From: Candidatus Multivorans sp.
GTDB taxonomy: Bacteria; Acidobacteriota; Thermoanaerobaculia; Multivoradales; Multivoraceae
Assembly (NCBI GenBank): GCA_965222875.1
Contig: CBDCVC010000001.1
Location: 117,264-181,263, forward strand
Reading direction: 5' to 3'
Length of the DNA: 64,000 nucleotides
The stretch's first letter is position 1. The number at the start of each line of letters is the position of its first letter. This document shows positions 7,108-31,267 of the stretch, piece after piece. Position numbers and translations under genes: made by a program. The notes below the pieces were generated by a model. It was not told the DNA's origin. It ran no database searches and was given only the letters and a program-made list of their open reading frames with translations.

Positions 7108-7682
7108 CGACTACTCGCACGTGTGGCAGCTTGCTGGCTGGTACCTTGGCTCTGCTCGCTGGTGGCTTCTTGGCGAGTTGCGACGTGACTAGGGACGACG
7201 CTCTTCCGCTCGTCGAATGGTGGATGCTCACGAGTGAGCGTGTCGTTGCGGCTGATGCCGTTGCCGACGTGGCGATCTTTGACGACGGCCGAGTGCGCTT
7301 CGGCCCGCGACTCGGGCGCGGGCAGGTGCGCTGGCACAGGCTTTCGCCGGGGGAGTTGGCTAGCCTCCGTCGAGCCGTCTTCGAGGACGGGGGGATTCTG
7401 GACATCGAGACTGAAACGCTCCTAGCCGCGGTGGGCGGTGCCGCGATGCGGCGTCATCTAGCGACTGCCTCCTCCGGAACGGTGGCAACAGGGGTGCCGT
7501 CTCTGGACGCCGGCACGACCGTTCTTCGCGTCGCTGCTGCAGGTGAAGTCCACGAAGTTCGGTACTACGACCTCGCCGGTGATACACACCGCTACAGTGG
7601 CGTCGACTCGCTGCAACGCGTCCGACGCGTCGAGCTGAGAATACTCGGCTTGATCGACGCTCTCCTTCCTAGCGCACGTTGA
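7108..7682 (+). CDS. Hypothetical lipoprotein whose 5' end is cut off by IS3 copy 1
   Basis: LLAGTLALLAGGFLASC lipobox right after the IS end; removing the IS gives an open frame back to ATG 5754. Confidence 0.5.
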
Positions 7683-8638: not shown

Positions 8639-9727
8639 TCACTTGTTCGATTTCCTGCGGTTGCACGGTAGGCACAACACCTGACAGTTTTCGGGCACTG
8701 TCTTGCCGCCGTCTGACCACGGGTCGATGTGGTCAGCTTCCATGTTCGTGATGTCGAACGACTCGCCGCAGAGATTGCAGTTGCCGCCCTGGCGTCCGAA
8801 GGCCGCTTGTTTCATGGCGGGAGTGAAGGCCCGAAGGTTCAGGTGCTTCTCCTCGCCGGTGAGCAGATAGACGTAGATGCCTGGCTGCCGCTGCACTTCG
8901 TCGTCCATCATCAGGCGGGCGACATCGGATTCAAGGGCCGTCGGGTCCAAGCTCTCGTCTTTGAGGTGCTCGTACAGCCCGCCCCAATCGACCCCCTTCA
9001 TCGGCTTGCGGTAGACCGTAAAGACGGCTTTCACTCGGTCGATGACGGTACGGAAGTGGCTCCACAGCGCGGTTGCGGTCTGGGCGAACTGGTGTGCGGC
9101 CATGTACTCCTCGACCGTCTGATCGTCGTCCTTGGCCCACTTGATAGCGGTTTCGAGGTAGGTCTGGCGAATGGCAGACCCTCTCAAGTAGTCGCCCGCA
9201 ACCCCATCGGCGGCACCACCGGCACGGCTGAAGTACCGCTTGGCGTCCGTGACCCACGGACCCGCGTAGACAGCGTTTCGCAGCTCTTGCTTGGTCAACT
9301 CCTCGCCCGCGATGTTGACGATCTCGAACCACGCGAGTTTCTCGCTGTCGGTTCCCTCGCAGAAGTACACCTGCAACTCGTAGTCGAGAATCTTCTTCTG
9401 CTCGTCGTTCTGTAGGTTGTCGAAGAAGCGCCCGTTCACCGAGTAGTCGCCCGTGACGTACTGGGCGACCGAGATTGTCCGCTGCTGGCCGTCGATGATC
9501 TCGTAGGTGCCGTCTTCGCGCACCGCCCAGTACATGACGTTCAGCGGAAAGCCCTTGTTGATGGTTTCCACTACCGCGTTGCGCTGCTTGTCCTTGTAGA
9601 CGAACTCGCGCTGGTACGGCGGCCGAATGTCGAGATCGCCACCGTAGCCACGAACCCCACCTTCGCCGTTGTCGCGGTAGTCCTCTACAAGCTCGCGGAC
9701 AGTGACCTGCCTGGGTTCGATCTTCAT
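8639..9727 (-). CDS. DUF262 (GmrS/ParB-like) plus HNH endonuclease
   Basis: PPYQREFVY, IIDGQQR, FEIVNIAG motifs; C-terminal CNLC...EADHIDPWSDGG...NCQVLCLPCNRRKS. Confidence 0.9.
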   Translation of the reverse strand: MKIEPRQVTVRELVEDYRDNGEGGVRGYGGDLDIRPPYQREFVYKDKQRNAVVETINKGFPLNVMYWAVREDGTYEIIDGQQRTISVAQYVTGDYSVNGRFFDNLQNDEQKKILDYELQVYFCEGTDSEKLAWFEIVNIAGEELTKQELRNAVYAGPWVTDAKRYFSRAGGAADGVAGDYLRGSAIRQTYLETAIKWAKDDDQTVEEYMAAHQFAQTATALWSHFRTVIDRVKAVFTVYRKPMKGVDWGGLYEHLKDESLDPTALESDVARLMMDDEVQRQPGIYVYLLTGEEKHLNLRAFTPAMKQAAFGRQGGNCNLCGESFDITNMEADHIDPWSDGGKTVPENCQVLCLPCNRRKSNK

Positions 9728-10728
9728 GCGCCCATCCTCTTGCGGATAATAAGGCGGTTGTACAGCCTCCTGCCGTCGATGATTGTGTAACACTCGTGGC
9801 CAATCCATCTAGCGGAGTTCGCTATACCCAGGATCTCAAACTGATTTGGGTTGTACTTGTCCAGAAACGTGATCGGTACACCCATCGTGCCGTTCCAATC
9901 TTCTGGAATATCGGCTACTCGGTCCACGTTGATCGCGTCGTAGTTGTCGTACTGCGGGTACTCGTCCGGCGAGTAGCGCTTCCAGAGAATCAACTCCTCG
10001 TTGCGCTTGCCGTGTTCGAGGTTTGTGAACCACGCTGCGTTCCCGAGCCGCCCTTTCACGACCCCATCGACGATTCTGTAGGCGCTCCCCTCCTTGGCAG
10101 TCGAGAGGAGCGTTTTGGCGTAGTCGTCCGGGATTCCGAATAACATGTCCTGGCCGTCAGGAGTGATGCCTAGCCACAACCTGTCGTTCATCAGCAGCGG
10201 AAAGATGGCCTTGTACGTGACGGCGTTCTTGTTCCCGACGATAAGAAACTGCTTGTCGAACTCCATCAACTGTGCCACGTACTCGCGGAACAGCGAGAAC
10301 GGTGGATTCGTGACCACGATGTCGGCCTGCTCCAACAGCGCGATGCTCTCAGCGCTGCGGAAGTCCCCGTCGCCCCGAAACTCATGGACACCAATGTCGT
10401 CCGGTTCGGGAATCCTGCCGCCAGCACTGGCCCCGTCGTATTCGAGCCAGATACCGCGCTCGGTGTCGTGACGGCTGAACAGGTCGCGCTCTTGGTTCTG
10501 GTAGCAGGAAGCAATCAGCTTCTTCAGCCCCAAGCTCTCAAACTTGTGCGAGAAGAAGTGGAAGAAGCCGGACACGCGGGGGTCGTCGCAGTTGCAGTAG
10601 ACGGTCTTCCCGCGAAAGTGCTCTCTGTAGTGGCGCAACTCCTTCTCGATGTCGGGAAGCTGCGTGTAGAACTCGTCGTACTTTGACCGCTTGGCCGTGT
10701 GCAGGTTGTCGTTCAGGCCTTCCTTCAT
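9724..10728 (-). CDS. Adenine-specific DNA methyltransferase, EcoRI family
   Basis: AKRSKYDEFYT, VYCNCDDP, GDGDFRS, DIVVTNPPFSLFREY, MGVPITFLDKYNP. Confidence 0.92.
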   Translation of the reverse strand: MKEGLNDNLHTAKRSKYDEFYTQLPDIEKELRHYREHFRGKTVYCNCDDPRVSGFFHFFSHKFESLGLKKLIASCYQNQERDLFSRHDTERGIWLEYDGASAGGRIPEPDDIGVHEFRGDGDFRSAESIALLEQADIVVTNPPFSLFREYVAQLMEFDKQFLIVGNKNAVTYKAIFPLLMNDRLWLGITPDGQDMLFGIPDDYAKTLLSTAKEGSAYRIVDGVVKGRLGNAAWFTNLEHGKRNEELILWKRYSPDEYPQYDNYDAINVDRVADIPEDWNGTMGVPITFLDKYNPNQFEILGIANSARWIGHECYTIIDGRRLYNRLIIRKRMGA

Positions 10729-19000: not shown

Positions 19001-21917
19001 CGACCTGGTAGACGCCGCTGGCGTTTGGCATCGCGCGGCCGCGGGCGCCCAGAAGCTGCACCTGCTTCAGCAGGCCGCGCTCGGCCAGCATCTCAAACAA
19101 GCTCCGCAGCAGCTCCTCCGCCTTCTCCGGCTCGGCGCCCCACTTCGCGGCCATCTGCCTCATCGTCGTCTGGCCGCCCTCGCTCAGCCACTGCAGGACG
19201 CGGCTGGGATTGTCGCCGGGGCCGCGTTTCAACTTGACGCCCTTCGGTCCGCCGGACCGCCGAAGATAGCCCTGCTGGATCTCGAGGTCGCCGGCGAGGC
19301 GGTTCCGGGTGAAGGTCAGATACTCCGCGTCGTAGAGGACCTTCTGCCGGCGAACGTAGTCGAGTGCCGCGGCGACCCCCTCGCGCATGGATTCCGGCGC
19401 CAGCCCGAGCCGGTTGGCGTGGTCCTGGATCCACGGCAGCGAAGCGTCCAGGTCGGCGTAGTCGACCTTCATTCGCCCCCAAGGTTCCAATCCCAGGGGT
19501 TGCCGGGCGGACTCCGAGATCTCCCGCAGCACCTGCATGCGCAGGAACTTCCGCCGTTCGCCGCGGTGGCGGCGGCCGGCTGCCTCCCGCCGGGCGACGA
19601 CCCAGACCTCCGGAATCAGCGCGCGCGAGAGCGACTCGTCCTTCTCCAGAGCGTCTTCGAGGAACCAGGTCAGGTCGCCTATCGACCTGTGCCCGCTGCC
19701 CAGTCCGTCCGCCATCAACGACCGCAGGCGGAATCGGCGCGCGTGGTCCTTCATCCAGCCGGCCTGAAAGGCGGCGTCCTGGCGGTTGTCGCAGAACACG
19801 AGCAGCCGCGGCCGCTCCGAGTGATGGACCATGTCCTGAGCCAGAACGTGCACGTCGGCGGCGTTGCTGGCGCGCACGGGCCGCGCCGGTTCACGGTAGT
19901 GGCCGCCTCCGCCCCGGCCGCCCAATGCGCCGCACGAGAGGCAGCTCGTCAGGACGCCGGGCCTGTCCCGCTTCTGCTTGACTGCGTGAAGGCGGATTCG
20001 CGGGCCGGGCGCGCCGCAGGCGAGGCAGTCCCCGCCTGGTCGTTCATGCGCTGCGCCGCAATGCCGGCAGAGGTGGACCGGAGCGGTTCGCCGTTCGAGG
20101 ACGCTCGCGGCATCACTGTTCCCGTTGGGTCGTCCCTGGTCTGGACCGTCTTCGTCCTCCGCGTCGTGCTCGTCGCCGCCGATCAGGCGGTCCACCAGAA
20201 CCACTCGCTTCCCCTCCCGGGCCTCGTCGAGCTTTCGCCAGACGACACCGTCCCCATGCGGCTCGCCGCCGCCAGGGCGTTTGCCGGTGAATGAGAAGTC
20301 CTCGAGATGGGCCTCGTAGTAGTGCTGACCGCAGGTGGTGCAGGTGAGCACTGGCAGACGTGCCGACCGCGTTTCGCCTGACGGCTCGGTCTCCTCGGCC
20401 GCCGCCGTCCCGCCGTGCTCGATCTCGTCCTCCGCGGCCAGCCAGAGCCGAGGTTCGCCCGTCTCGTCCGGAAAGGACACCACCGCGCCGGGAATTCCGC
20501 GCACGAAGGCGTGGACCACCGGCCGCAGTAGAGGCCGGCCATCGCGCCGCGCCGCGGCGGCCAGGGTCAGCCACGCCAGGATCTCGGCCTCCGTGATCTC
20601 CCGGCCGATGGCTTCGTGGAGTTTCGACGGCAGTTCGTGCAGCGGCCGCGGCTCGTGCAGCGCTTCGTTCAGGCGATAGACGATCTCGCTCCGCGCCAGG
20701 GCTCGGTAGAGCGCTTCGGGCCAGGGCTCATCGTCGAGATCCCGGCCGGCGAGCGCCCGAAAGGACCGGCGGACGGCGTGCCCGGGTCCATCGGAGTCCT
20801 CGTCGACGGCCTTGACGCAGTCGGCCAGGAGTTGGGCAGTGTCTCCGTGTGGCGCCGCCGCTGGCAGCCACCTCTCTTCGCTCCAGACCTCCTCCTCGTA
20901 GTCCTCCGCGACCGTCTCGACGGACTCCTCCGGCACGCCGAAGAAGCGCGACGCGAAGGCGCGAGCCGCCTCCGGCCGCTCGCGGTCGACGATCGTCGCC
21001 GAGGTGGCGACGCAGACCGTGTCCGCGGCCTGCCGGCCGCAGAAGGCCCGCAGACGGCGGATGAGACACGCGGTCTCCGCGCCCATCGCTCCGGTAAAGG
21101 TGTGAGCCTCGTCGAACACGAGGTAGTCGAGCCGGGCGCCGTGGAACAGCTCGGCGTCCCGCTGGCGGGTGAGAAGCAGCTCCAGTTGCTTCACGTTGGT
21201 GAGCAGGATTCGCGGTTGCCCGCCGGTCGAACGCATCGCTTCCCGCGAGCACGCCTCTTCCGCCGGGAACACGCTCTCGCCGCTCTTGGCCGCTCGCACC
21301 GCCTCGAGCTGCGCCTCGTAGTCCGAGCGGGAAGACCCCGGAGGAAGCCTGACGCCGCCCACGTCGCCTTCCCTCTCCGGCATCTTGCCGACGTACATGC
21401 CGAACGAAACGCCCGTGCCCGCCAGCAGCGAGCGCAGCCGCATCAACTGATCCTCGGCCAGCGCGTTCATCGGATAGACGATCACGGCGCTGATGCCGGC
21501 CGCCGCACCCTCGTCCCGCAGCCGCAGGCAGCGACTGACGATCGGGTAGAGGAAGCACTCCGTCTTGCCGGAACCGGTGCCGGTCGAAACGAGCGTCGAG
21601 CGACCCCCGACGATCGCGCGGACCGCCTTCTCCTGGTGCCGGTAGAGCTGCGAGACGGTGCTCGGAATCCGCTGCTCCAGGTGTGGATGGAGCAGCCCTT
21701 CGACCGCCAGGTCCGCCACAACCGCGCCGCTGCTGAAGGGCCGCGAGAGGCTGACGAACGGCCCTTGCAGCAACGGCGACTCGCGCGCCTCGTCGAGCGA
21801 CAGCAGTTCACGCATCTGCCCATGCAGGCGCGGGTCCGCGAACGGATAGGCCCGCAACTGGTAACGGAGAAAGCTCTGGAGAACCTTCTCCGTGAAGACG
21901 ACCGGGTTCAGAGCCAT
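16062..21917 (-). CDS. Giant DEAD/DEAH helicase with DUF1998, a PD-(D/E)XK/DUF559-like nuclease and an S24-like tail (interrupted by IS630)
   Basis: TGTGSGKT, YPMNALAEDQ, DEAH, SAT, TATLELGVDIG, QRAGRAGR, several CxxC, DUF1998 C..GC..SCIDCL, TTPDVIY..VYLDG..H, AAAG and GRSMEP. Confidence 0.88.
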
Positions 21918-22078
21918 GGGGCCGGCAAGGCTACCGCTTCTGACGACAGCTTCTTGGCGCCCCGCTGTAGATTCCTGTCATGCCGACCGAACCCCAAGGT
22001 CACCATAGTCGCGGGGCCGCATGGGGGGCGGTCGGCCGGCGGGGCCGTGCCCGTTATCAAGGAGGAGGAACAGAACCG

Positions 22079-22300
22079 ATGAGAGCGCCGAAAGAGAAAC
22101 TACCCGTGTCGAAGCTTGATGATCCCGACATGCAGGCGGTGCCTGTGGCAATGGAGCGAGCCGTCCGACGTGCGCACAGGGATGCGCATCGGCACGGCAC
22201 CGGTGTTCTCGTGGTCGTGAACGGCAAGATGGTGGAGGTCTCCCCGGATCCGGCGCTGTACGAAGACGACTCGGTAGCGGAGCCGACGAAGCGCTCGTAG
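22079..22300 (+). CDS. Small hypothetical, antitoxin-like protein
   Basis: Strong AGGAGG RBS; AMERAVRRAHRDA...VVVNGKMVEV pattern seen in small TA-associated proteins. Confidence 0.55.
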   Translation: MRAPKEKLPVSKLDDPDMQAVPVAMERAVRRAHRDAHRHGTGVLVVVNGKMVEVSPDPALYEDDSVAEPTKRS

Positions 22301-22429
22301 CTGTCTTGAACAGGCAGACGCGCGGGGCGGCTTGAAGCGGCCGTCCCGGCTTTCGGTTGCACTCTCGGCATCCTGCCGGAACTGGCTACGTCTTGGCGGC
22401 CCCGCGTGGTCAGCTCCTCCGCCGTCGCG

Positions 22430-22927
22430 TCAGGAACGCGAGGACGGCAACCGCCGCGAGCAACGGCGCCTGTGGAGGAAGTCGTTGCGTGCCGGGCTCG
22501 GGAGCTTGATCGGCAACGCCCGGCGCCGGTAGCCCGGCGCCTTCGGCAGGATCGCCACGTCCTCAAAGTCGGCCGTCAGGTTCCCGTCCTTGACGACCAT
22601 CACTCTCGCATCAGAAGCGGCCGCTAGGGCGAGCATTTGCCTGTCGTTCTCCCCGGAGCGCGTCACGACGGATCGCAGCCGTTCCTCTTCCCGTTCAATA
22701 TCTTCGTCGGCTATTCGATTCGCCAGACCGCTCTGGCTGTAGCGCCGGACGAGTGCCCAGACCTTGTCGTCCCACTTGAGTTGCTTCCCGCAACGATCGT
22801 AGGTGGAGTATGCAACCCGCCCATGCCCCTCGCCTATCCAATGCCGGAGCTGCGCGCCGGCCGACGCCGGCGATTCCTCATTGACAACGTCGAACGCACT
22901 TGCGTCCAGCACTACCCGAGTACACAT
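22430..22927 (-). CDS. PIN-like domain protein (putative nuclease)
   Basis: VVLDAS start, NDRQMLALAAASDARVMVVKDGNLTADF acidic pattern; starts 9 bp after the ATPase stop. Confidence 0.6.
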   Translation of the reverse strand: MCTRVVLDASAFDVVNEESPASAGAQLRHWIGEGHGRVAYSTYDRCGKQLKWDDKVWALVRRYSQSGLANRIADEDIEREEERLRSVVTRSGENDRQMLALAAASDARVMVVKDGNLTADFEDVAILPKAPGYRRRALPIKLPSPARNDFLHRRRCSRRLPSSRS

Positions 22928-22936
22928 GGCCCAGCC

Positions 22937-24202
22937 CTACCGGCGGAAGCCGAGAAGCCGCTCGGTCTCGTCGACGAAGAACTCCCGGAAACCGCGCGGC
23001 GGGTCGACCAGATTCGCTTGATCGTCCAGTCGAATGTCGTGCAGGATCGTGGAGGCGCCGTCATCGCTGCGGTGGAAGTAGGCGATGCCCACGTCTTGCG
23101 GATCCACCTGCCCCGACATCGCGGCGATCCGGAACCAGTCCGGTACGTGGTCGCTGTGCGTTTCGACCAGGAGCCGACTGCCGCGCGACGCTACCGCGCG
23201 AACCAGCGCCGCTTGCGTTCGTGGGTGCAAATGAGCCTCGGGCTGTTGCAGGAGGAGGGTGGCCTCCCTTGGCGCGGAAGCGATGGCGTGGAGCATCGGC
23301 AACGCGCTCTGGACGCCGAAGCCGACGTCGACGAGGTTGCGACGGTCCCCGGAGGCGTCGACAAGCACTTCGTAGCCGCTTGGCTCGCGCCGGAGTTCGA
23401 GATCGGTGAAGAGGCCGAGCTCGCTGCCCAGTTCTCGAATCTTGACGAGCATCGCACTATCCATCGTTCGGCCGAACGGGTTCGTTGCGAACGACCGTTC
23501 GCGCAGCCAACCGACCGGGTCGTTGGCGGCAACCAGGAGCTTCTGCTCGGGCGTTGGGAAGAGGCCGCTCTGCCGAAAGAAGTTCACGAAACCCACGAAC
23601 GCCCGGTCCGCTTCCGGCGTCAGGTCGCCGGTTCGCCTACGTCTCAAGATCGGATTGCCGTCGTGCGGCAGGTTGCCCAGACGGACGGAGCGCGACAGCC
23701 ACGTACTGAACTGCCGGTGGGAAACAGAGGACTGTTCGAAGTCGAACTCGAAGTCTGGTCCGGCGACTCGCCACATCTCCCGGCGGGCATCGCCTGACGG
23801 GTCGAGCCGCGTAATGCCGAAGGCAGGTGCGTCGCGCCCCTTCGTGTTGAGCACGAAAACCAACTCCCGCTCGCGGGGTTCGCCGTCGGGACCTTGGTCG
23901 TAGACGACGCGCACGCGTTCGTAGCTGTGGCCCTCGAGTGTCGCTTCCAGGGCGAACGCCGCGGCGCCGGAACGGGCGATCGTGCTGAAGGGACCCATGT
24001 TGAACGGCGGCTGATCGAAGTGGTTCTCGTCGTTCAGGTCGTCGAGACTCGCCAGTTTGGCCATTCCGCGAAGGCAGCCCAGAAAGGTCGACTTCCCTGC
24101 GCTGTTCTCTCCCACCACCACCGCGATGCGGGGCAGTCCGACACGCTGGGTACCCTCGAAGCAGCGCACGTCCGTCAGAGCGAGGCTCGTGATGGCGCTC
24201 AT
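22937..24202 (-). CDS. ABC/AAA_21-type ATPase with DUF3696-like C-terminus
   Basis: GENSAGKS, VGFGVQSALP, LLLQQPEAHLHP, VETHSDH, LDDQANLVDPPRGFREFF. Confidence 0.88.
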   Translation of the reverse strand: MSAITSLALTDVRCFEGTQRVGLPRIAVVVGENSAGKSTFLGCLRGMAKLASLDDLNDENHFDQPPFNMGPFSTIARSGAAAFALEATLEGHSYERVRVVYDQGPDGEPRERELVFVLNTKGRDAPAFGITRLDPSGDARREMWRVAGPDFEFDFEQSSVSHRQFSTWLSRSVRLGNLPHDGNPILRRRRTGDLTPEADRAFVGFVNFFRQSGLFPTPEQKLLVAANDPVGWLRERSFATNPFGRTMDSAMLVKIRELGSELGLFTDLELRREPSGYEVLVDASGDRRNLVDVGFGVQSALPMLHAIASAPREATLLLQQPEAHLHPRTQAALVRAVASRGSRLLVETHSDHVPDWFRIAAMSGQVDPQDVGIAYFHRSDDGASTILHDIRLDDQANLVDPPRGFREFFVDETERLLGFRR

Positions 24203-25656
24203 GGGGCGCTCCTGCCCACGAGTTTCCGAAGCCAGCTTCGCAGTCGAGCCATCCGGCCGCGGCTGCCGAGAGGCGGTGCCGCATCGAGGAACGGATAGAC
24301 GACCCGATCTCCCTGCGCCGTCCGGGTCGCGACTTCACAGTGTTCGCGGCACGGCCGATCTTCCGTGCGGAGCACGTTCGGCACGTAGCTGTAGTCCAGC
24401 TTGCCGGCGTTCTGGGGCCACCATACGTCGCCGACGACCATGCGGAGCATCTCGAGCGTCATGAGACTGGCAAGATTGGCGCTGAACGGGAACACGTTCT
24501 GATTCGTGGGTCTGCCGCCGGCGAGCCTGGCGATGTAGTTCGGGTCGTCCAGGGAGCCGTCGCGCTCCATGGTGACGTCCGAGGTCGTGTACTGCCCGTC
24601 GCATCGCAGGCAGCGGCGCTCGGGCCCGGCGCGGACCACGCTCCAGGCCGCCTGGCCCAGGGTGCGGTCTCGCTTCGTGTCGACGAAGACGCCTCCAAAC
24701 ACGACGGGGATGCAGTGGGCGTAGGCGATGTGGTCCACAAGGTCCTTTGGAAGGGGTCGGTCGACGCAGGAGAACAGGACGTCGCAGTCGAGCGCGGCGA
24801 GATAGCAGTCGCGCTGCTGGAGCCAGCCGGCGTGGGTCTCGACCCCGAAGTCCGCTGCCGTCGCCGACCGGCGCAGATTCTCGGCTGCGAGTTCGACTTT
24901 GAGGCGGCCGATGTCGTTCTCGCCAGCGTACAGGAGACGGTCCAGGTTGTGGCGCTTCACTTGGTCCGCGTCCACGAGAACGATGTTCTCGACGCCGATG
25001 CGGGCGAGCGTCTCCGCAACGATGCACCCGACGCTCCCGAGACCCACGACGCCGATTCGCAGCCGGGCCAGATCTGCTTGGCGGGCGCGGCCCCAAGTAT
25101 CGGTCGTGCGCCGGAGGACCGCCCGCCGCCGAGGCGGCGGGACCAACTCGTCATTCCAGGTCAGCCGCAGGCAACGACCGACGACCCTCACCTTCCGGCA
25201 CCACGTTCGCTCGAATTCGCCGCCCTTGCGGTTCCAGAAACGCGCGCTCCACGATTCATCCGTTCCGAGTGTCAGCCCTACGAGCGGCAGGCCGGTGGCT
25301 CGGGCCGGCCCGCCGATGCGGTCCCGTTCGGCCTTGACATCCGCACTGCTCATGTCTTGCCAACCGGCTGTCGGATGGCTGTGCAGGAAGGCCAGACCTG
25401 CGTTCTTCTCGCGGGCGAGGCGAAGGGCCCGCGACAGGAAGTCCGGTTCGAAGCTCGCGCCGCCGTGCAGCGTGCGTTCCCCTTCCTCCGGCAGGACGAG
25501 TTCCGAGATCAGCGCGGTCGTCCGGCTAGCGCCGGTACTTGGCCGCCACAGCGCGAAGCAGAGGTCTTCCTGCCGTGTGCCCGAGCGCAGATGCGCCAGC
25601 AGGTGACGGCAAGCTGCATCGTGAGCGGACTCGACCAGCGCCGCCTCGAAGGTCAC
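24199..25656 (-). CDS. JAB/MPN-like peptidase fused to a ThiF/E1 adenylyltransferase
   Basis: QEDLCF...HSHPTAGWQDMSSAD JAMM-like motif; GVVGLGSVG, DADQVKRHNLDRL, SCVD, CLRC and CREHC zinc ligands; GTGA overlap with upstream gene. Confidence 0.88.
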   Translation of the reverse strand: MTFEAALVESAHDAACRHLLAHLRSGTRQEDLCFALWRPSTGASRTTALISELVLPEEGERTLHGGASFEPDFLSRALRLAREKNAGLAFLHSHPTAGWQDMSSADVKAERDRIGGPARATGLPLVGLTLGTDESWSARFWNRKGGEFERTWCRKVRVVGRCLRLTWNDELVPPPRRRAVLRRTTDTWGRARQADLARLRIGVVGLGSVGCIVAETLARIGVENIVLVDADQVKRHNLDRLLYAGENDIGRLKVELAAENLRRSATAADFGVETHAGWLQQRDCYLAALDCDVLFSCVDRPLPKDLVDHIAYAHCIPVVFGGVFVDTKRDRTLGQAAWSVVRAGPERRCLRCDGQYTTSDVTMERDGSLDDPNYIARLAGGRPTNQNVFPFSANLASLMTLEMLRMVVGDVWWPQNAGKLDYSYVPNVLRTEDRPCREHCEVATRTAQGDRVVYPFLDAAPPLGSRGRMARLRSWLRKLVGRSAP

Positions 25657-26033
25657 AGTTGCTCCAGGACGCGAAAGAGATGGCGCCGGACGTAAGTCCG
25701 CATGTTCTTGTCCGACGGCGCCAGACGGTCCCAGAAGTCGCTCGGAGGAAAGCTGAAGGCCCACCATTCGGTGCCTTCGAACTCGTGCTTCGAGTGCATC
25801 GTGAAGTGCGTGCCCTCGATTTCCGCTTGCCGAAAGTGGACGAAGTGCGGCGGATACTCGGGGTAGGCATCCTCCTGAAAGCTCAGACCAAGCTGCAGTA
25901 TCTTCCCCTTGAAGCGCCCGCTTGGCGCACGGAGCGGGAAGACGACGCCCGCGCCCCCCATACCGTTCCACGAAGGAACGACGCGGGCCTCGATCTCGAG
26001 TTCCCGCAGCTCTCGGGCGATGGTTTCGAGCAC
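25653..26033 (-). CDS. Putative E2/UBC-fold protein with no cysteine
   Basis: YPEYPPHF and WWAFS motifs; lies between the Ubl and E1 genes; zero Cys in 126 aa. Confidence 0.65.
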   Translation of the reverse strand: MLETIARELRELEIEARVVPSWNGMGGAGVVFPLRAPSGRFKGKILQLGLSFQEDAYPEYPPHFVHFRQAEIEGTHFTMHSKHEFEGTEWWAFSFPPSDFWDRLAPSDKNMRTYVRRHLFRVLEQL

Positions 26034-26037
26034 TGCG

Positions 26038-26493
26038 TCAGGCTACGGGCGTCGGTCCGGCGTAGAGCGCTACGAACTCGTCGCCGTCGACGATCGGCAC
26101 TTCATCGACGAGGTTCTCGTACCTCTCGGCCGTACGCACGTTGTCGAGGTAGTAGCTCTCCAGTTGATTCAGGTCGATTGCGGCGTCGGCACCCGCGTGG
26201 CGCAGGATCTCCTCCAGGGTGATCGGCGTCTTCGTTGTGACCTGCGGCTCTCCGTTCACTGTGTAGTGGATTCTCGACTCCGGAGGCGGCGGATCCCGAC
26301 GCGGCTTGACCTCGAACTTGTCCCCTTCGCGCAACTCGACCTCGGCGGACGGGTCGAACCACGTCTCGCCGGTGTCCTCGCGCACAAGCTCGGCGTCTTT
26401 GGGCCTCCACCCGATCTGCTTCAGGAGCCATTCGACGGAGACACGTTTCCGTGAAGACTCGAAGTTCTGGCCGTTGATGGTGAAGTGGATCAT
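26038..26493 (-). CDS. Multi-ubiquitin-domain protein with two beta-grasp repeats
   Basis: Repeats IHFTINGQ...VELREGDKFEV and IHYTVNGE...VPIVDGDEFVA linked by PPPP; ends YAGPTPVA. Confidence 0.8.
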   Translation of the reverse strand: MIHFTINGQNFESSRKRVSVEWLLKQIGWRPKDAELVREDTGETWFDPSAEVELREGDKFEVKPRRDPPPPESRIHYTVNGEPQVTTKTPITLEEILRHAGADAAIDLNQLESYYLDNVRTAERYENLVDEVPIVDGDEFVALYAGPTPVA

Positions 26494-26749
26494 GCTGCCG
26501 GTCTTCCTCTGTCGGGGCGCCGTCCCTTGCCGCTGGTGGAGACGGCTCTTGCGCAAGCCGGTATGTTGTGCGCCGGCTTTGGCCAACTATACCGTCGCTG
26601 GAGGTGGTTTCGGGTCGAGACGACACCGCTCCAGGCCTGACCCCGGGCGGCGGTGGGACGTGGTTGCCGAGCGCTAAGGAAGGCGGCCCCGAGGTACTCT
26701 GAAAGGCAACCTCGGAGACCCTCGCTCCACCCCTGATGGAGGCAAGACG

Positions 26750-27379
26750 GTGACGAAGATCGAGCGACGACAGCCCGCAGCCGACTGGCTTCAGATGAAG
26801 GTGTATCTCTCAGGCATCAAGCCGGAGATCTGGCGCCGATTCCTCGTTCCCGTGTCCTTCACGCTCCACGAACTCCACGCCGTGATTCAGGGCGCGATGG
26901 GCTGGGACGACAGCCACCTGTCCATGTTCGGCATCGGCGGCGTCTGGTTCGAGACGCCGAGCCCGTACTCCGCGGAAGAACCCGAACTTGGAGAAAACGC
27001 GCGGGACCATGTGTTGGCCGACGTCCTGCCCGTCGGCACGGGCTTCGTCTACGTGTACGACTTCGGCGACGACTGGCACCACGCGCTGACGGTGGAGAAG
27101 AGGGTCGCCCCTTCCGCAGGGGCGGTTCCGTCGCGTGGAATGGACCTGCCGCGCTGCATCGAAGGCGCCCGGGCCTGCCCGCCGGAGGACTGCGGCGGCG
27201 TCGGCGGATACTGGAACCTGGTGGAGGCGCTCGCCGATCCCGAACACGAAGACCACGAGCGCCTGTCTGAGTGGATCGGGACGTTCGAGGCGGAGGTCTT
27301 CAGCGTCGATCAGGCCAACGCGCTGATTTCGGGAAATTGCGCCCTGTACCGCGAGCGAGGATGGGGTTTCCTCGATTAG
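26750..27379 (+). CDS. pRiA4b ORF-3 family protein
   Basis: IWRRFLVP, LHAVIQGAMGWDDSHL, YVYDFGDDWHH, GARACPPEDCGG. Confidence 0.9.
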   Translation: MTKIERRQPAADWLQMKVYLSGIKPEIWRRFLVPVSFTLHELHAVIQGAMGWDDSHLSMFGIGGVWFETPSPYSAEEPELGENARDHVLADVLPVGTGFVYVYDFGDDWHHALTVEKRVAPSAGAVPSRGMDLPRCIEGARACPPEDCGGVGGYWNLVEALADPEHEDHERLSEWIGTFEAEVFSVDQANALISGNCALYRERGWGFLD

Positions 27380-27654
27380 GCGGCAGTGTGACGTGAACCC
27401 GAGGCACGAAGGAGGGTCGGCATGAATACCGGCTCGGGGCGGGTGCCGCACTCGCGGACCAGCATCTTTCGGACGCCTAGTCGGTATCCTTCGTCGATCG
27501 CTTCGCGGCGAGTCGGAAAGACGCCAACCAACTGTTGGCCGCAGATCAGGACGTACTGGTCCGGGAACCTGGTCGCGTACTCGTCGAAGTGCTCCTCGAA
27601 GAACTCCAGTTCGTCAGCGAGGAGCGGCTGCGTTTCGGCGTCTCTGTCTGGCAT
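27376..27654 (-). CDS. DUF5678-like small protein
   Basis: ELEFFEEH...FPDQYVLICGQQLVGVFPTRREAIDEGY pattern. Confidence 0.6.
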   Translation of the reverse strand: MPDRDAETQPLLADELEFFEEHFDEYATRFPDQYVLICGQQLVGVFPTRREAIDEGYRLGVRKMLVRECGTRPEPVFMPTLLRASGSRHTAA

Positions 27655-27877
27655 CGCGTCCCTTGCAAGCAGTGGGAGGGTGCGGTTCGTTGATGACCCT
27701 CTCGCTTCACCGTAGCATGAGCCCGAACCTATCCCCGTGTGGCGGCCCGACGTATGCCGCCCGCCACCGTCGCCCCGCCTGGGGCGGGATCGGCGCGTAC
27801 CGAACCAAGCACTTGACCAAGTTGGGCGTGGGGCCTAGCATCCCTTCAACTCAGGTTGAACGAGGAGCACGGAGAAC

Positions 27878-28120
27878 ATGACCCGTTACGTGAAGATCGG
27901 CGAGGCCAAGACGCACCTCTCGGCGCTGCTGGCGGATGTGGAGGCGGGCGAGGACTTGGTCATTTGCCGCGGCGCGACTCCGATTGCCCGCGTGACCCCG
28001 CACGTCGACGACCGGGACCATGCCGCGCTGTGCGCGACGTTGCGCCGGGAACGGGCGAAGCAGCGTGCCGTGACGACCCCGGAACTCCTGGCTTGGCGCC
28101 ACGAGGGGCACGCCCGCTGA
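27878..28120 (+). CDS. Phd/YefM family antitoxin
   Basis: IGEAKTHLSALLADVEAGEDLVICRGATPIARV; AGGAG/GGAG RBS. Confidence 0.9.
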   Translation: MTRYVKIGEAKTHLSALLADVEAGEDLVICRGATPIARVTPHVDDRDHAALCATLRRERAKQRAVTTPELLAWRHEGHAR

Positions 28121-28422
28121 TGGCGTTCGTTCCCGACGCCTCGGTCGCGGCCGCCTGGGTGCTGCCGGATGAGGAAGCGGCGCTGGCCGACCTGGCCTTG
28201 GACCGGCTCGGCGCCGAAACGGCCAAGGTCCCGGACGTCTTCTGGCACGAATTGCGGAATCTCCTGTTGTCGGCCGAGCGTCGGGGCCGCATTGACGACC
28301 GCCACGCCGACGTCTCCCTGTCACGGCTGCGCAGGCTTCCGATTCGCAGCGTCGTCGAAGCGGATACGCGGGAGCGTGGCGCTGACGCTTGCCCAGGACG
28401 CCTCCTTCAACGGGAAGGGTGA
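28120..28422 (+). pseudogene. vapC: VapC (PIN) toxin, C-terminally truncated
   Basis: FVPDASVAAAWVLPDE...FWHELRNLL present; the later YDAAY motif is absent and the frame runs into antisense SNF2 sequence. Confidence 0.8.
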
Positions 28423-31267
28423 TTGTCCGTACCCAGTGGTGGAAGGTTTCGCGGAGTTGGTTGACGGCGAGTTCTTCCAGGCTCAGCAGGATCAGGGCGT
28501 CGACGCCGCGGGGCACGCCGCCGCGCCGCACGGTCCAGCGGGCCGTCTCGGCGGGTCCCGGCAGGCGGCATTGGGTGAGCACCCGCAGCGCCCGCTCGAT
28601 CATCGGATGGGCCAAGTGGAGCAGAGCGACTTCGGGCCGTGGTGAGAACACCGCGCGGCCGCCCACCTGGCGCAGCAGGGAGTCAGGATCGAAGGCAAGA
28701 GACCGGATCCCGCCCTGAACGCCGTCGGTACGTTGCTGTCGCACGGACTCGTCGACTGTGTTGCGCCAGCCCGGGAGGTCGGGACGGAGGAGGCGCCAGA
28801 CGTCGTCTCCGGCTGGAGCAGAGCGGAGTTGCGGCCGGCCGCCGCCGTTCGCGGCCATGGCCGCTTCGAGCGTGAGCCGGAGCGCGGCGGCATCGAAGTC
28901 GATCTCGGTGGCCAGCGCGGCCAGACGCTTGGCCGGGTCCGCGTCGGCGAGGGCCCGGCCGCCGCGAACACGTAGCAGCTCCGCGTCGCCGAGTTCCTCC
29001 TGCGGGGCGGATCCGGGCAGGATGCCCGCGCTCCCGGGAGCGGCGCCGGACAGGCCCGGGATTCCCTGGCTTCGCAGCCGGTCGACTTGCTGCGTGAGCC
29101 CGTGGGTCAGGTCGAACTGGACTCTCGCCAGGTCCTCGCCCTTGATCAGCCGGCGGTGAGCGGCGACATCGAAGAGCTCGTTCACCGATCCAAGGTCTTC
29201 CCGGATCTCGTTCGCCTTGCGGATGACGTGGTCGAGGAACTTGAGATCCGGGTCGTCGTCGCTCAGGAAGTGGTGCACGGTCACGTCGCGAGCCTGGCCG
29301 TAGCGGTCGAGGCGGCCGTTTCGTTGCTCCAGGCGCGAGGGGTTCCACGGGCAGTCGTAGTGCAGCAGGTAGCGGGCGCTGCGATGCAGGTTCAGGCCTT
29401 CGGAGGCGGCGTCGGTGGCGATCAGGATGCGCACCTCGGAGTCCGGGTCGTTGAAGGCCTCCCGGACCCGGTTGCGGTCGGTGTCGTCCATGCCGCCGGC
29501 GCCGCCGGACCCGAAGAGAGTCAGCACGCGGGAGTCGTAGCGCTCTCGCAGTCGTCGTTCGAGGTAGTCGAGGGTCGTCTTGTACTCGGTGAAGACGACG
29601 AGGCGTTCGTCGTCCCTGAACGCAGGCGTCGCGTCGCTGCGGGCCGGAACGAGCAGAAGCTCCTCGATCAGGTCCGACAGGGCGTCGAAGCGTGCGTCGA
29701 CCTTGGGGGTCTGCTCGATTGTCGGCAGACCGTCCGAGGTGAAGCCGAGGGCTTCGAGGGCGTTGTCGATGGCCGTCATCTCGCCGGCCACCGAGTCCGC
29801 GACGTTGAGCAGCCAGGCGCCGACGACGCCGGCAGCCGTGCCCGTGCGCTCCTCGGTTTCCCGGTCGTCCGAGGTTTCGCGCTGGACCGAGCGTTGCGCC
29901 GCCGTCACGTCGGCGTCGGTGGCGGCTCGCGCGGCCTGCTCGGCTCGGGCGTAGCCGTCTCGGGCGCGGTACCAGGAGTCGGCGAAGGCGGTCGGGCAGG
30001 ACAGGAGGCGCTTGCCCAGGATCTCGATCGCGAAGGTCCCGGCCCGCTCGCGGGCCTGACCAGCCGCGATGGCGCCGTGCACGGCCTTGCGGAAGGCGTG
30101 AAAGGCCTCGGACAGGGCTTGCTCGCGCCGGCTGCGGTGGAGCAGGACGGGCTTGGGTGGTTTGCGTGTGCAGAACCTGGGCGCGGCGGACGCGCGGTTC
30201 AGGTCGCGTTTCAGGCGGCGGACCACCAACTGGCCGATGCGGTCCCGCGCGCGGTCGGTCAGTTCGTCGGTCTGGCTGACGCGCACCGGGTCGAGGATCT
30301 CCAGCAGACCGGTGAAGGAGCGGGTGTGGCCGTTGTGCGGCGTGGCGGAGAGGAACAGGCGGTGTTCGAAGCACGGAGCGATCTGGCGCAGCATCTGACA
30401 CAGCTCGCTGTCGTCGCCGAAGGGCGAGGGCATCAGGTTGTGGCATTCGTCGACGATCAGGAGGTCCCAGGCAAGCCGGGGCGACCCGTCGTGCGTCTGG
30501 CTGGCGGCAAGGAACTGCTCCTGGATGTCCGGCTGGCGAAGGTAGTGGTAGGAGGCGACGATGCGGCTGAACGAGCGCCAGGGGTTTGCGTCGATGCCGA
30601 GTTCGCGGCGCAGGCGCTCAGTGCGCTCGCGGTCGACCACCTCGAATGGCAGGGCGAACTTGGACTCGAGTTCGTCGCGCCACTGCAGGCGCAGGGCCGC
30701 TGGCACGAGGACGAGCACCCGGCGGATGCGCCGGCGCAGCAGGAGTTCCTTGAGGATCAGCCCTGCCTCGACGGTCTTGCCCAGGCCGACATCGTCGGCG
30801 ATGAGCAGGTTCACCCGCGGCATCTGCAGCGCGCGCAGCAGGGGGACGAGCTGGTAGTCCTCTACCCGGATGCCGCTGTGCAGCGGACTCGACACCGGCT
30901 GACGGTCGAGCGGGCCGGTGCCGTCCGGATCGAGGTACGGCATGAGCGCCGTCCAGCGGGCGGCGCGCAGCAGGGCGTCAAAGTCCTCGGCCGGCATCGG
31001 ACAGGTGTCGTGGACCCGGGGCAGCCGGTTCGGCTCGAGGAGTTCGCGCCCTGGTTCGAGCTCCCAGAGGAGGCGCTCGCTGTGCGGCGAGTCGTGGTCC
31101 TTGTACTCGACCTGCACCAGGTGCAGGACGCCGGTTTCGTTGTCGTCGTATGGTGCGACGCTGGCGACGATGCCGCGGCGGTTGCGGACCCGGGCGAGCA
31201 TGCCGACGCGGGGGATGGATGGCGGTGCTGGTGGCTGCATGACGGGTCTTGTCGCTACTGGTTCCAC
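28370..31267 (-). pseudogene. DISARM DrmD-like SNF2 helicase, 3' end lost
   Basis: GMLARVRNRRGIV N-terminus, IADDVGLGKT, VDECHN, LSATPHNG, TDAASEGLNL, WNPSRLEQRNGRLDR; frame continues through antisense vapBC to 27851. Confidence 0.78.
29014..29038 (-). repeat. REP-like palindrome inside the SNF2 coding sequence
   Basis: CGGGCAGGATGCCCGCGCTCCCGGG, translated as PGSAGILP; same family as 3850 and 38303. Confidence 0.55.

Follow-up and report, generated by a model that had tools for sequence, protein, structure and literature searches.

We characterized a ubiquitin-like protein (Ubl) of 151 residues encoded in a 64,000-nucleotide stretch of a Candidatus Multivorans sp. genome (contig CBDCVC010000001.1, positions 117,264 to 181,263 of the forward strand), the whole of which is referred to hereafter as the window. 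In the translation of its open reading frame (ORF) the protein ends ...EFVALYAGPTPVA-stop; the longer C-terminal stretch reads ...GDEFVALYAGPTPVA and is followed by TGA. Beyond the last hydrophobic stretch the sole glycine is G146, followed by P147, and the final residue is A151. The usual teaching is that E1 enzymes activate a glycine at the C-terminus. Our preferred reading, to which we assign a probability of about 0.68, is that the protein is the modifier of a cysteine-free, Bub-type cassette without BubE, that its reactive end is the encoded Ala151, and that this end would be relayed from the E1 through Tyr374 to Ser94 of the E2-like partner. The original prediction, made from the letters of the window, had offered two explanations for the tail: either the JAB peptidase cuts an unusual Gly-Pro bond, or the E1 activates a C-terminal alanine.

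The tail AGPTPVA-stop, with no C-terminal glycine, is real. In an alignment of 48 homologues from a 90%-clustered protein collection, in which mean column identity was 54%, the tail was the most conserved part of the Ubl, and G146, T148, V150 and A151 were invariant (48/48). All homologues stop at the alanine apart from P0049, which has one residue more (47/48). Three Ubls from Bdellovibrionales, only 34–39% identical to that of the window, still end ...SSGPTPVA-stop. A profile search of 1.84 billion cluster representatives gave 199 matches at E <= 1e-3, and the 48 homologues together with the new proteins among the best 150 of these 199 made up a set of 196 family proteins. The C-termini of this set were compared, as the original prediction had proposed, and 145 of the 196 stop exactly after a T-P-V-[A/S] motif, with terminal alanine in 100, serine in 45 and glycine in none. 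Within the 145, T(-4) is kept in 139, P(-3) in 135, V(-2) in 128 and G(-6) in 131. A further 20 of the 196 carry one to eight non-conserved residues beyond the motif, and 10 carry a longer extension, among them five Ubl-E2 fusions and two false matches of the regular expression. The remaining 21, in which the pattern did not find the motif, are fragments, N-terminal pieces and variants that the pattern missed (...HHPVA, ...GPAPVS).

A second sample was drawn through the enzyme: 80 metagenome loci with a JAB-E1 protein 43–76% identical to that of the window, 72 of which have a Ubl upstream. The last residue of the motif is serine in 65 of these Ubls, alanine in seven and glycine in none. V(-2) is kept in 70/72, and G(-6) in only 51/72, being otherwise Lys, Ala, Thr or Glu. 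Glycine-ended homologues, which the original prediction had named as the sign of a point mutation, were thus absent both from the 145 motif-ended proteins and from the 72 metagenome Ubls. Because of this, the odd tail is read as a working end of the protein rather than as a mutation.

The position of extra sequence in the longer relatives points to the residue that would react. Among the 72 metagenome loci, 44 Ubls stop at the motif, 12 add one to eight non-conserved residues and 16 are Ubl-E2 fusions; in every extended or fused protein the extra sequence begins directly after the Ala or Ser. The same junction is found in P0075, P0079, P0092, P0169 and P0180. In BilA a universally conserved glycine is followed by up to nine non-conserved residues, which are removed by the JAB enzyme (Chambers et al., 10.1101/2023.09.26.559546, as far as its text was available). 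Since the variable extensions and the E2 fusions of the present family start right after Ala/Ser, as they do after the glycine of BilA, Ala151 is favoured over Gly146 as the mature end. The distance from the conserved Phe of the last strand lends weak support to the same choice: A151 lies 11 residues from it and G146 six, and the comparators are the terminal Ser of PDB 9cd2 (eight), the Gly of two BubE-linked loci, L046 and L049 (10), and the Gly-Gly end of the genome's own ThiS (about nine). A relative on a Rhodococcus plasmid has the tail ...AGPVA, in which the glycine is at a different distance from the strand.

The gene context of a Ubl, an E2 and a JAB-E1 fusion, as originally predicted, was borne out by Pfam, by a match of the fusion to BubCD in the PDB and by profile alignment of the E2. 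The original prediction did not extend to the lack of catalytic cysteines in both enzymes, to the missing BubE or to the translational coupling of an ATPase gene to the operon. The best solved relative of the JAB-E1 protein is Citrobacter BubCD (9ea4, E 1.2e-20), with both domains covered. In 14 orthologues the JAMM residues E30, H92-S-H94, S103 and D106 are invariant, as are the adenylation residues G205/G207/G210, D229, R240 and D299. The only conserved cysteines, C349/C352/C436/C440 (two C-x-C pairs, as we name them), are read as a zinc site. In an alignment of 95 proteins, which included three BubE-linked JAB-E1s, the crossover-loop Tyr374 is kept in all 95 and Tyr356 in 89. The invariance of Tyr374 matches that of Tyr370 in BubCD, which the main text of Ye et al. 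(10.1101/2024.11.21.623953) describes as the single invariant crossover-loop residue and where the substitution Y370F abolishes conjugation.

The E2-like protein of the window contains no cysteine, and its family has no conserved one. The invariant residues are Y57, P58, P61, P62, H63, H66, W90, S94, P96, P97, D99 and W101. The protein itself had no match in sequence searches of Pfam, PADLOC, NCBIfam or the PDB; its family profile aligned with a Prok-E2_E-type alignment at 99% hhalign probability (E 9.5e-18), and the invariant S94 (16/16) fell on the serine of the W-S-R motif of these E2s. L049, the first sequence of that alignment, matches Pfam Prok-E2_E at 6.4e-36 and shows the Ser-x-His pattern reported for BubB; the equivalence of S94 with S333 of BubB rests on this S-x-H spacing in L049 and L046 and on the published text, not on a direct alignment to BubB. 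The place of the P-P-D aspartate in the canonical E2 of L049 is occupied by H63 (P-P-H). An S-K-H at residues 81–83 of the E2 was also considered as the Ser-x-His motif of BubB and was rejected, as neither Bdellovibrionales nor the fused relatives conserve it. From these comparisons the pathway looks cysteine-free, like that of Bub, with a rebuilt E2 active site.

Cysteine-free Bub E1/E2 pairs conjugate through Tyr and Ser, and E. coli BubA forms ATP-, Tyr342- and Ser106-dependent conjugates in vitro, according to the main text of Ye et al. The deposited chain of this BubA (E. coli ZDHYS365, PDB 9cd2) ends ...QTDKS. Because Ser-ended E. coli BubA formed conjugates, the action of a Bub E1 on a non-glycine end has experimental precedent; the constructs of the companion preprint (Gong et al.) carried N-terminal tags, as stated in the part of it that was available. 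In type II CBASS, the C-termini of CD-NTases may be Gly or Ala, and a G432A substitution lowers conjugation without abolishing it (PMC10449767, available text). The description of an alanine end as non-canonical Ubl chemistry, which accompanied the original prediction, was therefore too strong in this one respect, non-glycine ends being already represented by the Ser of 9cd2 and the Gly/Ala of CD-NTases.

Homology to the Citrobacter and E. coli systems suggests the following chemical steps. The E1 domain would adenylate the carboxylate of Ala151; Tyr374 of the crossover loop and, after it, Ser94 of the E2 would take over the acyl group in turn, each forming an oxyester and not a thioester, before a final transfer to a target amine. 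The Ubl of the window's clade would need no trimming; in relatives whose Ubl is extended by one to eight residues or fused to the E2, cleavage by the JAB domain would fall directly after Ala/Ser. In the window's clade, since BubE is absent, the JAB domain may serve de-conjugation. An ATPase encoded next to the JAB-E1 gene may sense infection or act as an effector, and the genomic context suggests a role in anti-phage defence. Even for canonical Bub, according to the main text of Ye et al., protection against phage has not been found.

Several observations weigh against this scheme. The E2 lacks the His at +2 and the Asp of BubB, having P96 and H63 in these places, which leaves catalysis by Ser94 uncertain; Iyer et al. 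(2006), in the part of the paper that lists the class (class 6e), read such E2s as inactive and RWD-like. The JAB active site is invariant even though the Ubl of the clade needs no processing, and the main text of Ye et al. argues that the JAB domain of BubCD may act mainly or only on the precursor. G(-6) is still well conserved (131/145; 51/72) and must have some role. The match of the window's Ubl to Pfam Multi_ubiq (PF14452) reaches 16.8 bits, below the cut-off of 24.5. The E1 tree considered below is a quick one with long branches, and the clustering of end types on it is not independent evidence, as related sequences share their labels.

Other explanations were weighed. One is that no conjugation takes place: the E2 would be a dead, RWD-like adaptor and the Ubl a scaffold or regulator, adenylated only or forming filaments, with its tail a binding epitope for the E1, the E2, the JAB domain or the ATPase. 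The missing cysteine, the missing His and Asp that flank the serine of type I BubB, a weak RWD match of the Bdellovibrionales E2 (E 0.013) and the annotation of the class as inactive are all consistent with this, as are the filaments that the available text of Gong et al. describes for Bub and Bil Ubls with three beta-grasp domains. We consider it improbable. Bub E1/E2 pairs that likewise lack cysteines do carry out conjugation, by way of Tyr and Ser (Ye et al., main text), Y374 (95/95) and S94 are invariant, all adenylation residues are intact, and a precisely placed carboxylate on a small residue, with extensions in relatives that JAB could remove, has the look of an E1 substrate. The other explanation is the first of the two originally offered, in which the JAB domain would cut between Gly146 and Pro147, remove PTPVA and expose the glycine to the E1. 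It would account for the conservation of G(-6) in all 48 close homologues and 131/145 family proteins and for the fusion of the E1 to a JAB domain whose active site is intact, and the JAB enzymes of Bil and of type I Bub are reported, in the texts available, to expose a glycine by cleavage. The glycine is, however, absent from 14/145 and 21/72 proteins, whereas the T-P-V-[A/S] downstream of it is conserved as well or better and does not vary in length; the residues removed in Bil are reported, in the available text, as non-conserved. The extensions and fusions start after Ala/Ser and not after Gly, an end at Gly146 would lie closer to the last-strand Phe than any comparator (6 against 8–10), and the ...AGPVA relative from Rhodococcus moves the glycine relative to the strand. 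Cleavage at Gly146 is accordingly given little chance, and activation of the alanine, with its family-wide V-[A/S]-COOH, is the favoured member of the original pair.

A biosynthetic role is the least probable of all, and we give it almost no weight. The Ubl would be a ThiS/MoaD-like sulfur carrier, thiocarboxylated by the ThiF-like domain, and the E1 domain does match ThiF/MoeB models, below their cut-offs (TIGR02356 at 1.4e-19, 70 bits against 275). The protein has no Gly-Gly end, however, and it is accompanied by an E2-like protein and a JAB domain; a ThiS of the genome's own, with a Gly-Gly end, is encoded elsewhere, along with three more ThiS-family matches; and the scan of cassette and flanking proteins, which lie in a defence island, turned up no biosynthetic family. 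Rather than replacing the preferred reading, a last proposal extends it. Val-Ala/Ser-COOH would be a second 'terminal code', served by a dedicated clade of E1/E2 enzymes that lack cysteines and have a rebuilt E2 active site (Ser94 with His63/His66 where BubB has Ser-x-His plus Asp), and insulated from a glycine-type cassette of the same cell; JAB would be the de-conjugase, and the ATPase and a 165-residue protein would form a sensing or effector arm, the whole being an undescribed anti-phage system of four to five genes. We regard this fuller scheme as speculative, and as doubtful in its entirety, although far from negligible.

A beta-grasp fold of the Ubl, the lack of which the original prediction had named as a second point against itself, has indirect support. 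A profile built from single-domain members of the family matches the solved Methylobacterium Ubl BilA (8u38, E 1.8e-5) and also 9d5b, a 'Multi-ubiquitin domain-containing protein', and aligns with type II BubA proteins at 97.9% hhalign probability; this last alignment covers the first, not the last, beta-grasp domain of BubA and does not address the equivalence of the termini. For P0016, a homologue 68% identical to the window's Ubl, the ESM Atlas model has Multiubiquitin clusters as its nearest neighbours (feature score 0.91, TM 0.50), with a Rad60/SUMO-like cluster also near (TM 0.49). The close homologue P0010 carries a precomputed PF14452 match. Searches of PDB sequences with the Ubl alignment and with the Ubl-E2 fusion P0180 brought no significant match. 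The ATG at 26493 is taken as the true start of the gene, because homologues begin MIHF...; a 182-residue ORF from a TTG at 26586 was rejected as the start, homologues giving it no support. The gene was found in 14 species-genome loci, from Thermoanaerobaculia, Candidatus Multivorans, Gemmatimonadota and Bdellovibrionales.

The relation of these systems to loci with BubE was assessed by searches for DUF6527 (PF20137). The window's genome, of 98.62% completeness, yielded no hit at E <= 1; the domain is present in 17 of 401 sampled genomes of the phylum, including one of the same genus. Among the 80 related metagenome loci, our own BubE hidden Markov model found a single case, L090. The BubE-like gene of this locus (7145-7624) lies about 0.8 kb downstream of JAB-E1, and its Ubl ends ...GPTPVS; Ser-ended T-P-V-S tags and BubE can thus co-occur. 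We also examined twelve BubE-linked loci of the phylum. Six are of type II (L039-L042, L047, L048), and their BubA proteins all end in Ser (...TDRS, ...TDKS twice, ...TNRS and ...TGES twice); one type II BubA of the phylum matches PDB 9cd2, 'ZDHYS365 multi-ubiquitin domain protein', at E 3.1e-13. Two Ubls of type I, both unfused, terminate in ...TEG, or in ...NPG followed by nine residues. In another BubE-linked locus, L044 (4148-5605), an E2-like region, JAB and E1 apparently form one 485-residue frame, a triple fusion, with no Ubl ORF of at least 70 residues upstream on the same strand.

In a quick maximum-likelihood tree of 94 E1 domains, a single clade (SH-aLRT 100) held all 84 T-P-V-[A/S] systems; the type I-like systems of Gly type and type II lay outside it. 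The end type changes only four times on this tree, too few for a test of covariation between Ala/Ser and columns of the E1. The genome holds a second Ubl-E2-E1 cassette, of glycine type, outside the window (G000:C2:1143555-1145421; L021, L132). Its Ubl ends ...DQTDG followed by QR, its E2 of 133 residues has W-S-R-H, and its E1 is a homologue at E 2.4e-22. Two Bub-like systems with different terminal residues are therefore present in one cell.

The features of the cassette and its surroundings are collected below.

Coordinates of the cassette and flanking defence-related genes in the window
Feature	Coordinates	Strand	Basis or remark
Ubl gene, 151 aa + TGA stop; two predicted beta-grasp (Multi_ubiq-type) domains	26038..26493	minus	ORF translation
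Codons of heptapeptide A145-G-P-T-P-V-A151	26041..26061	minus	A151 is the proposed reactive terminus
A151 codon	26041-26043	minus	
Stop codon of Ubl gene	26038-26040	minus	
E2-like gene, 126 aa, GTG start	25653..26033	minus	profile comparison with Prok-E2_E-type alignment
JAB/JAMM peptidase-E1 (ThiF-type) fusion, 485 aa, GTG start	24199..25656	minus	Pfam ThiF 1.5e-31
AAA_21-type (ABC/OLD-like) ATPase, 421 aa, ATG start	22937..24202	minus	Pfam AAA_21 5.7e-18
165-aa protein, family unassigned, last cassette gene	22430..22927	minus	invariant D8, E80, D95, D114
DruE-like helicase, 1961 aa	16032-21917	minus	PADLOC DruE 1.2e-115; flanks cassette
DrmD-like SNF2 protein	27851-31267		PADLOC 1.2e-184; flanks cassette
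Type II restriction-modification pair	8639-10728	minus	PADLOC REase_II 2.4e-134 (also NsnA 4.1e-28) and type II methyltransferase 9e-114

The genes of the cassette are tightly packed. Four nucleotides separate the TGA stop of the Ubl gene from the GTG start of the E2 gene, which is in a different frame; the E2 stop overlaps the GTG start of JAB-E1 (GTGA), and the JAB-E1 stop overlaps the ATG of the ATPase gene (ATGA). The JAB-E1 start codon is conserved, being GTG in 11 related loci and ATG in three low-GC Bdellovibrionales loci. A scan of 21900-27900 for sigma-70 promoters and terminators found nothing beyond shuffled expectation.

The ATPase, whose PADLOC matches are to NsnB (2.9e-36) and also to the AriA and GajA models, adjoins JAB-E1 in 13 of the 14 genome loci, in one of them (L004) in inverted orientation; the contig of the remaining locus, L010, breaks off within the E1. 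The 165-residue protein is present in 10 of the 14 loci and is missing downstream of the ATPase gene in L012, a Bdellovibrionales locus. It matched no Pfam, PADLOC, NCBIfam or PDB profile; to the eye its four invariant acidic residues recall a PIN-type nuclease, an impression that they alone give. As the arm formed by the ATPase and the 165-residue protein was found in only 1/80 of the more distant metagenome loci, the system has a three-gene core, and the ATPase arm belongs specifically to the window's clade. No other fourth gene was common to more than five of 56 loci downstream.

The cassette sits in a defence island, since DruE-like, DrmD-like and restriction-modification genes surround it. 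The DruE-like protein has DEAD, Helicase_C and MrfA Zn-binding domains, and its extreme C-terminus (residues 1908-1956) shows a sub-threshold match to Peptidase_S24 (LexA-like; 22.2 bits, cut-off 23.3). The restriction-modification pair is placed upstream of the DruE-like gene. On the plus strand, divergent from the Ubl gene, 26750-27379 encodes a PRiA4_ORF3-family protein (Pfam 3.9e-53). It is followed at 27376-27654 (minus strand) by an ORF of 92 residues with no family, which also lies beside the cassette in L003 and L004 (85–88% identity). No tRNA was found in a scan of the window.

The closest described system is type I Bub (formerly 6E.1; Citrobacter sp. RHBSTW-00271, 9ea4), which consists of BubAB, a Ubl-E2 fusion cut after a conserved Gly, with BubCD and BubE (DUF6527), according to the main text of Ye et al. 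Like the window's cassette it has a JAB-E1 fusion (that of the window being homologous to BubCD), whose E1 has an invariant crossover-loop Tyr and no catalytic Cys; an E2 of Prok-E2_E lineage with a serine in place; a multi-beta-grasp Ubl, as is predicted for that of the window; and a mobile or defence-island setting. It differs in that BubAB is fused, whereas the Ubl and E2 of the window are separate genes (16/72 relatives are fused). The main text reports a conserved Gly for 107 BubAB proteins, where the family of the window has Val-Ala/Ser. Type I Bub has BubE and the window's genome has neither BubE nor DUF6527, although all Bub operons are stated in that text to possess bubE; the His335 and Asp299 of type I BubB correspond to Pro and His in the window's E2. 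The window's operon, unlike type I Bub, has a translationally coupled ATPase gene, and the E1s of the window's family form a separate clade.

Type II Bub (6E.2; BubA, BubBD and BubE; E. coli ZDHYS365) shares with the window the lack of cysteines, a multi-beta-grasp Ubl (predicted for the window) and a non-Gly end, and in both Ubls a Thr stands three residues ahead of the small terminal residue. Unlike the window's system, it has an E2-E1 fusion, no JAB and always BubE, according to the main text of Ye et al. Its tail is T-x-[K/R/E]-S against T-P-V-[A/S], and its E1 clade is distant. Type II CBASS also uses E1-type adenylation, and the window's E1 matches the PADLOC CBASS 'E1-E2' models up to 3.7e-17; that system likewise includes a JAB peptidase and may have Gly or Ala at the C-terminus of its substrate, as stated in the available text. 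Its substrate, however, is a cyclase rather than a beta-grasp Ubl, and its Cap2 is an E2-E1 fusion with cysteine thioesters. No CD-NTase family was found among the cassette and flanking proteins scanned. Bil (BilABCD, types I/II) encodes Ubl, E2, JAB and E1 together, as does the window, and its Ubl is distantly related (8u38). The Bil E1 is described, in the text available, as having a separate catalytic-cysteine domain alongside a stand-alone JAB, whereas in the window JAB is fused to the E1 and the E2 has no Cys; in BilA non-conserved residues follow a Gly that is universally conserved, whereas the window's Ubl ends in Ala. ThiS and MoaD carriers end Gly-Gly, and the window's Ubl ends ...TPVA.

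The family is widespread. It comprises the 199 cluster representatives and 238 confirmed metagenome stretches, which span Acidobacteriota, Gemmatimonadota and Bdellovibrionota. JAB-E1 relatives that are more distant lie on plasmids: nineteen plasmid records match at E <= 1e-20, including plasmids of Rhodococcus, Mycobacteroides, Mycobacterium and Clavibacter and haloarchaeal plasmids. One of them, NZ_CP108044.1 (Rhodococcus sp. NBC_00294; 88678-96015, L134), places the three-gene core in a cultured actinobacterium. There the Ubl and E2 are annotated as 'hypothetical protein' and JAB-E1 only as 'ThiF family adenylyltransferase'; the neighbours are an ImmA/IrrE peptidase gene upstream and PIN-domain and HTH genes downstream.

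Published descriptions were consulted for earlier reports of such ends. The class is listed as row 6e, with an 'inactive' E2, in the part of Iyer et al. (2006) that covers it, where an Ala/Ser end is unmentioned. In the main texts of Ye et al. and Gong et al. no mention was found of Ala- or Ser-ended Bub-type Ubls, which the supplements may show: in the former, 'C-terminal serine' has no occurrence, 'alanine' is used only for mutants and a C-terminal glycine is mentioned for type I only; in the latter, 'alanine' and 'C-terminal glycine' do not occur. A literature search for C-terminal alanine and Ubl surfaced only CBASS, Bil and UFM1 papers, and one for Bub only two Bub preprints and two papers on CapK/CapS. 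Neither PADLOC 2.0 nor NCBIfam has a model for a module of Ubl, E2 and JAB/E1 with an ATPase. On these comparisons we regard the family as a large undescribed branch of cysteine-free Bub systems, with tags that appear to end in Val-Ala or Val-Ser.

The statements that all Bub operons encode BubE and that BubA ends in glycine fail for this major sister branch, which operon searches seeded with DUF6527 miss by construction. The branch adds a candidate defence module, composed of Ubl, E2 and JAB/E1 plus an ATPase. The natural Val-Ala/Val-Ser family would also provide a test of the tolerance of the E1 pocket and of the terminal residue as a determinant of pathway specificity.

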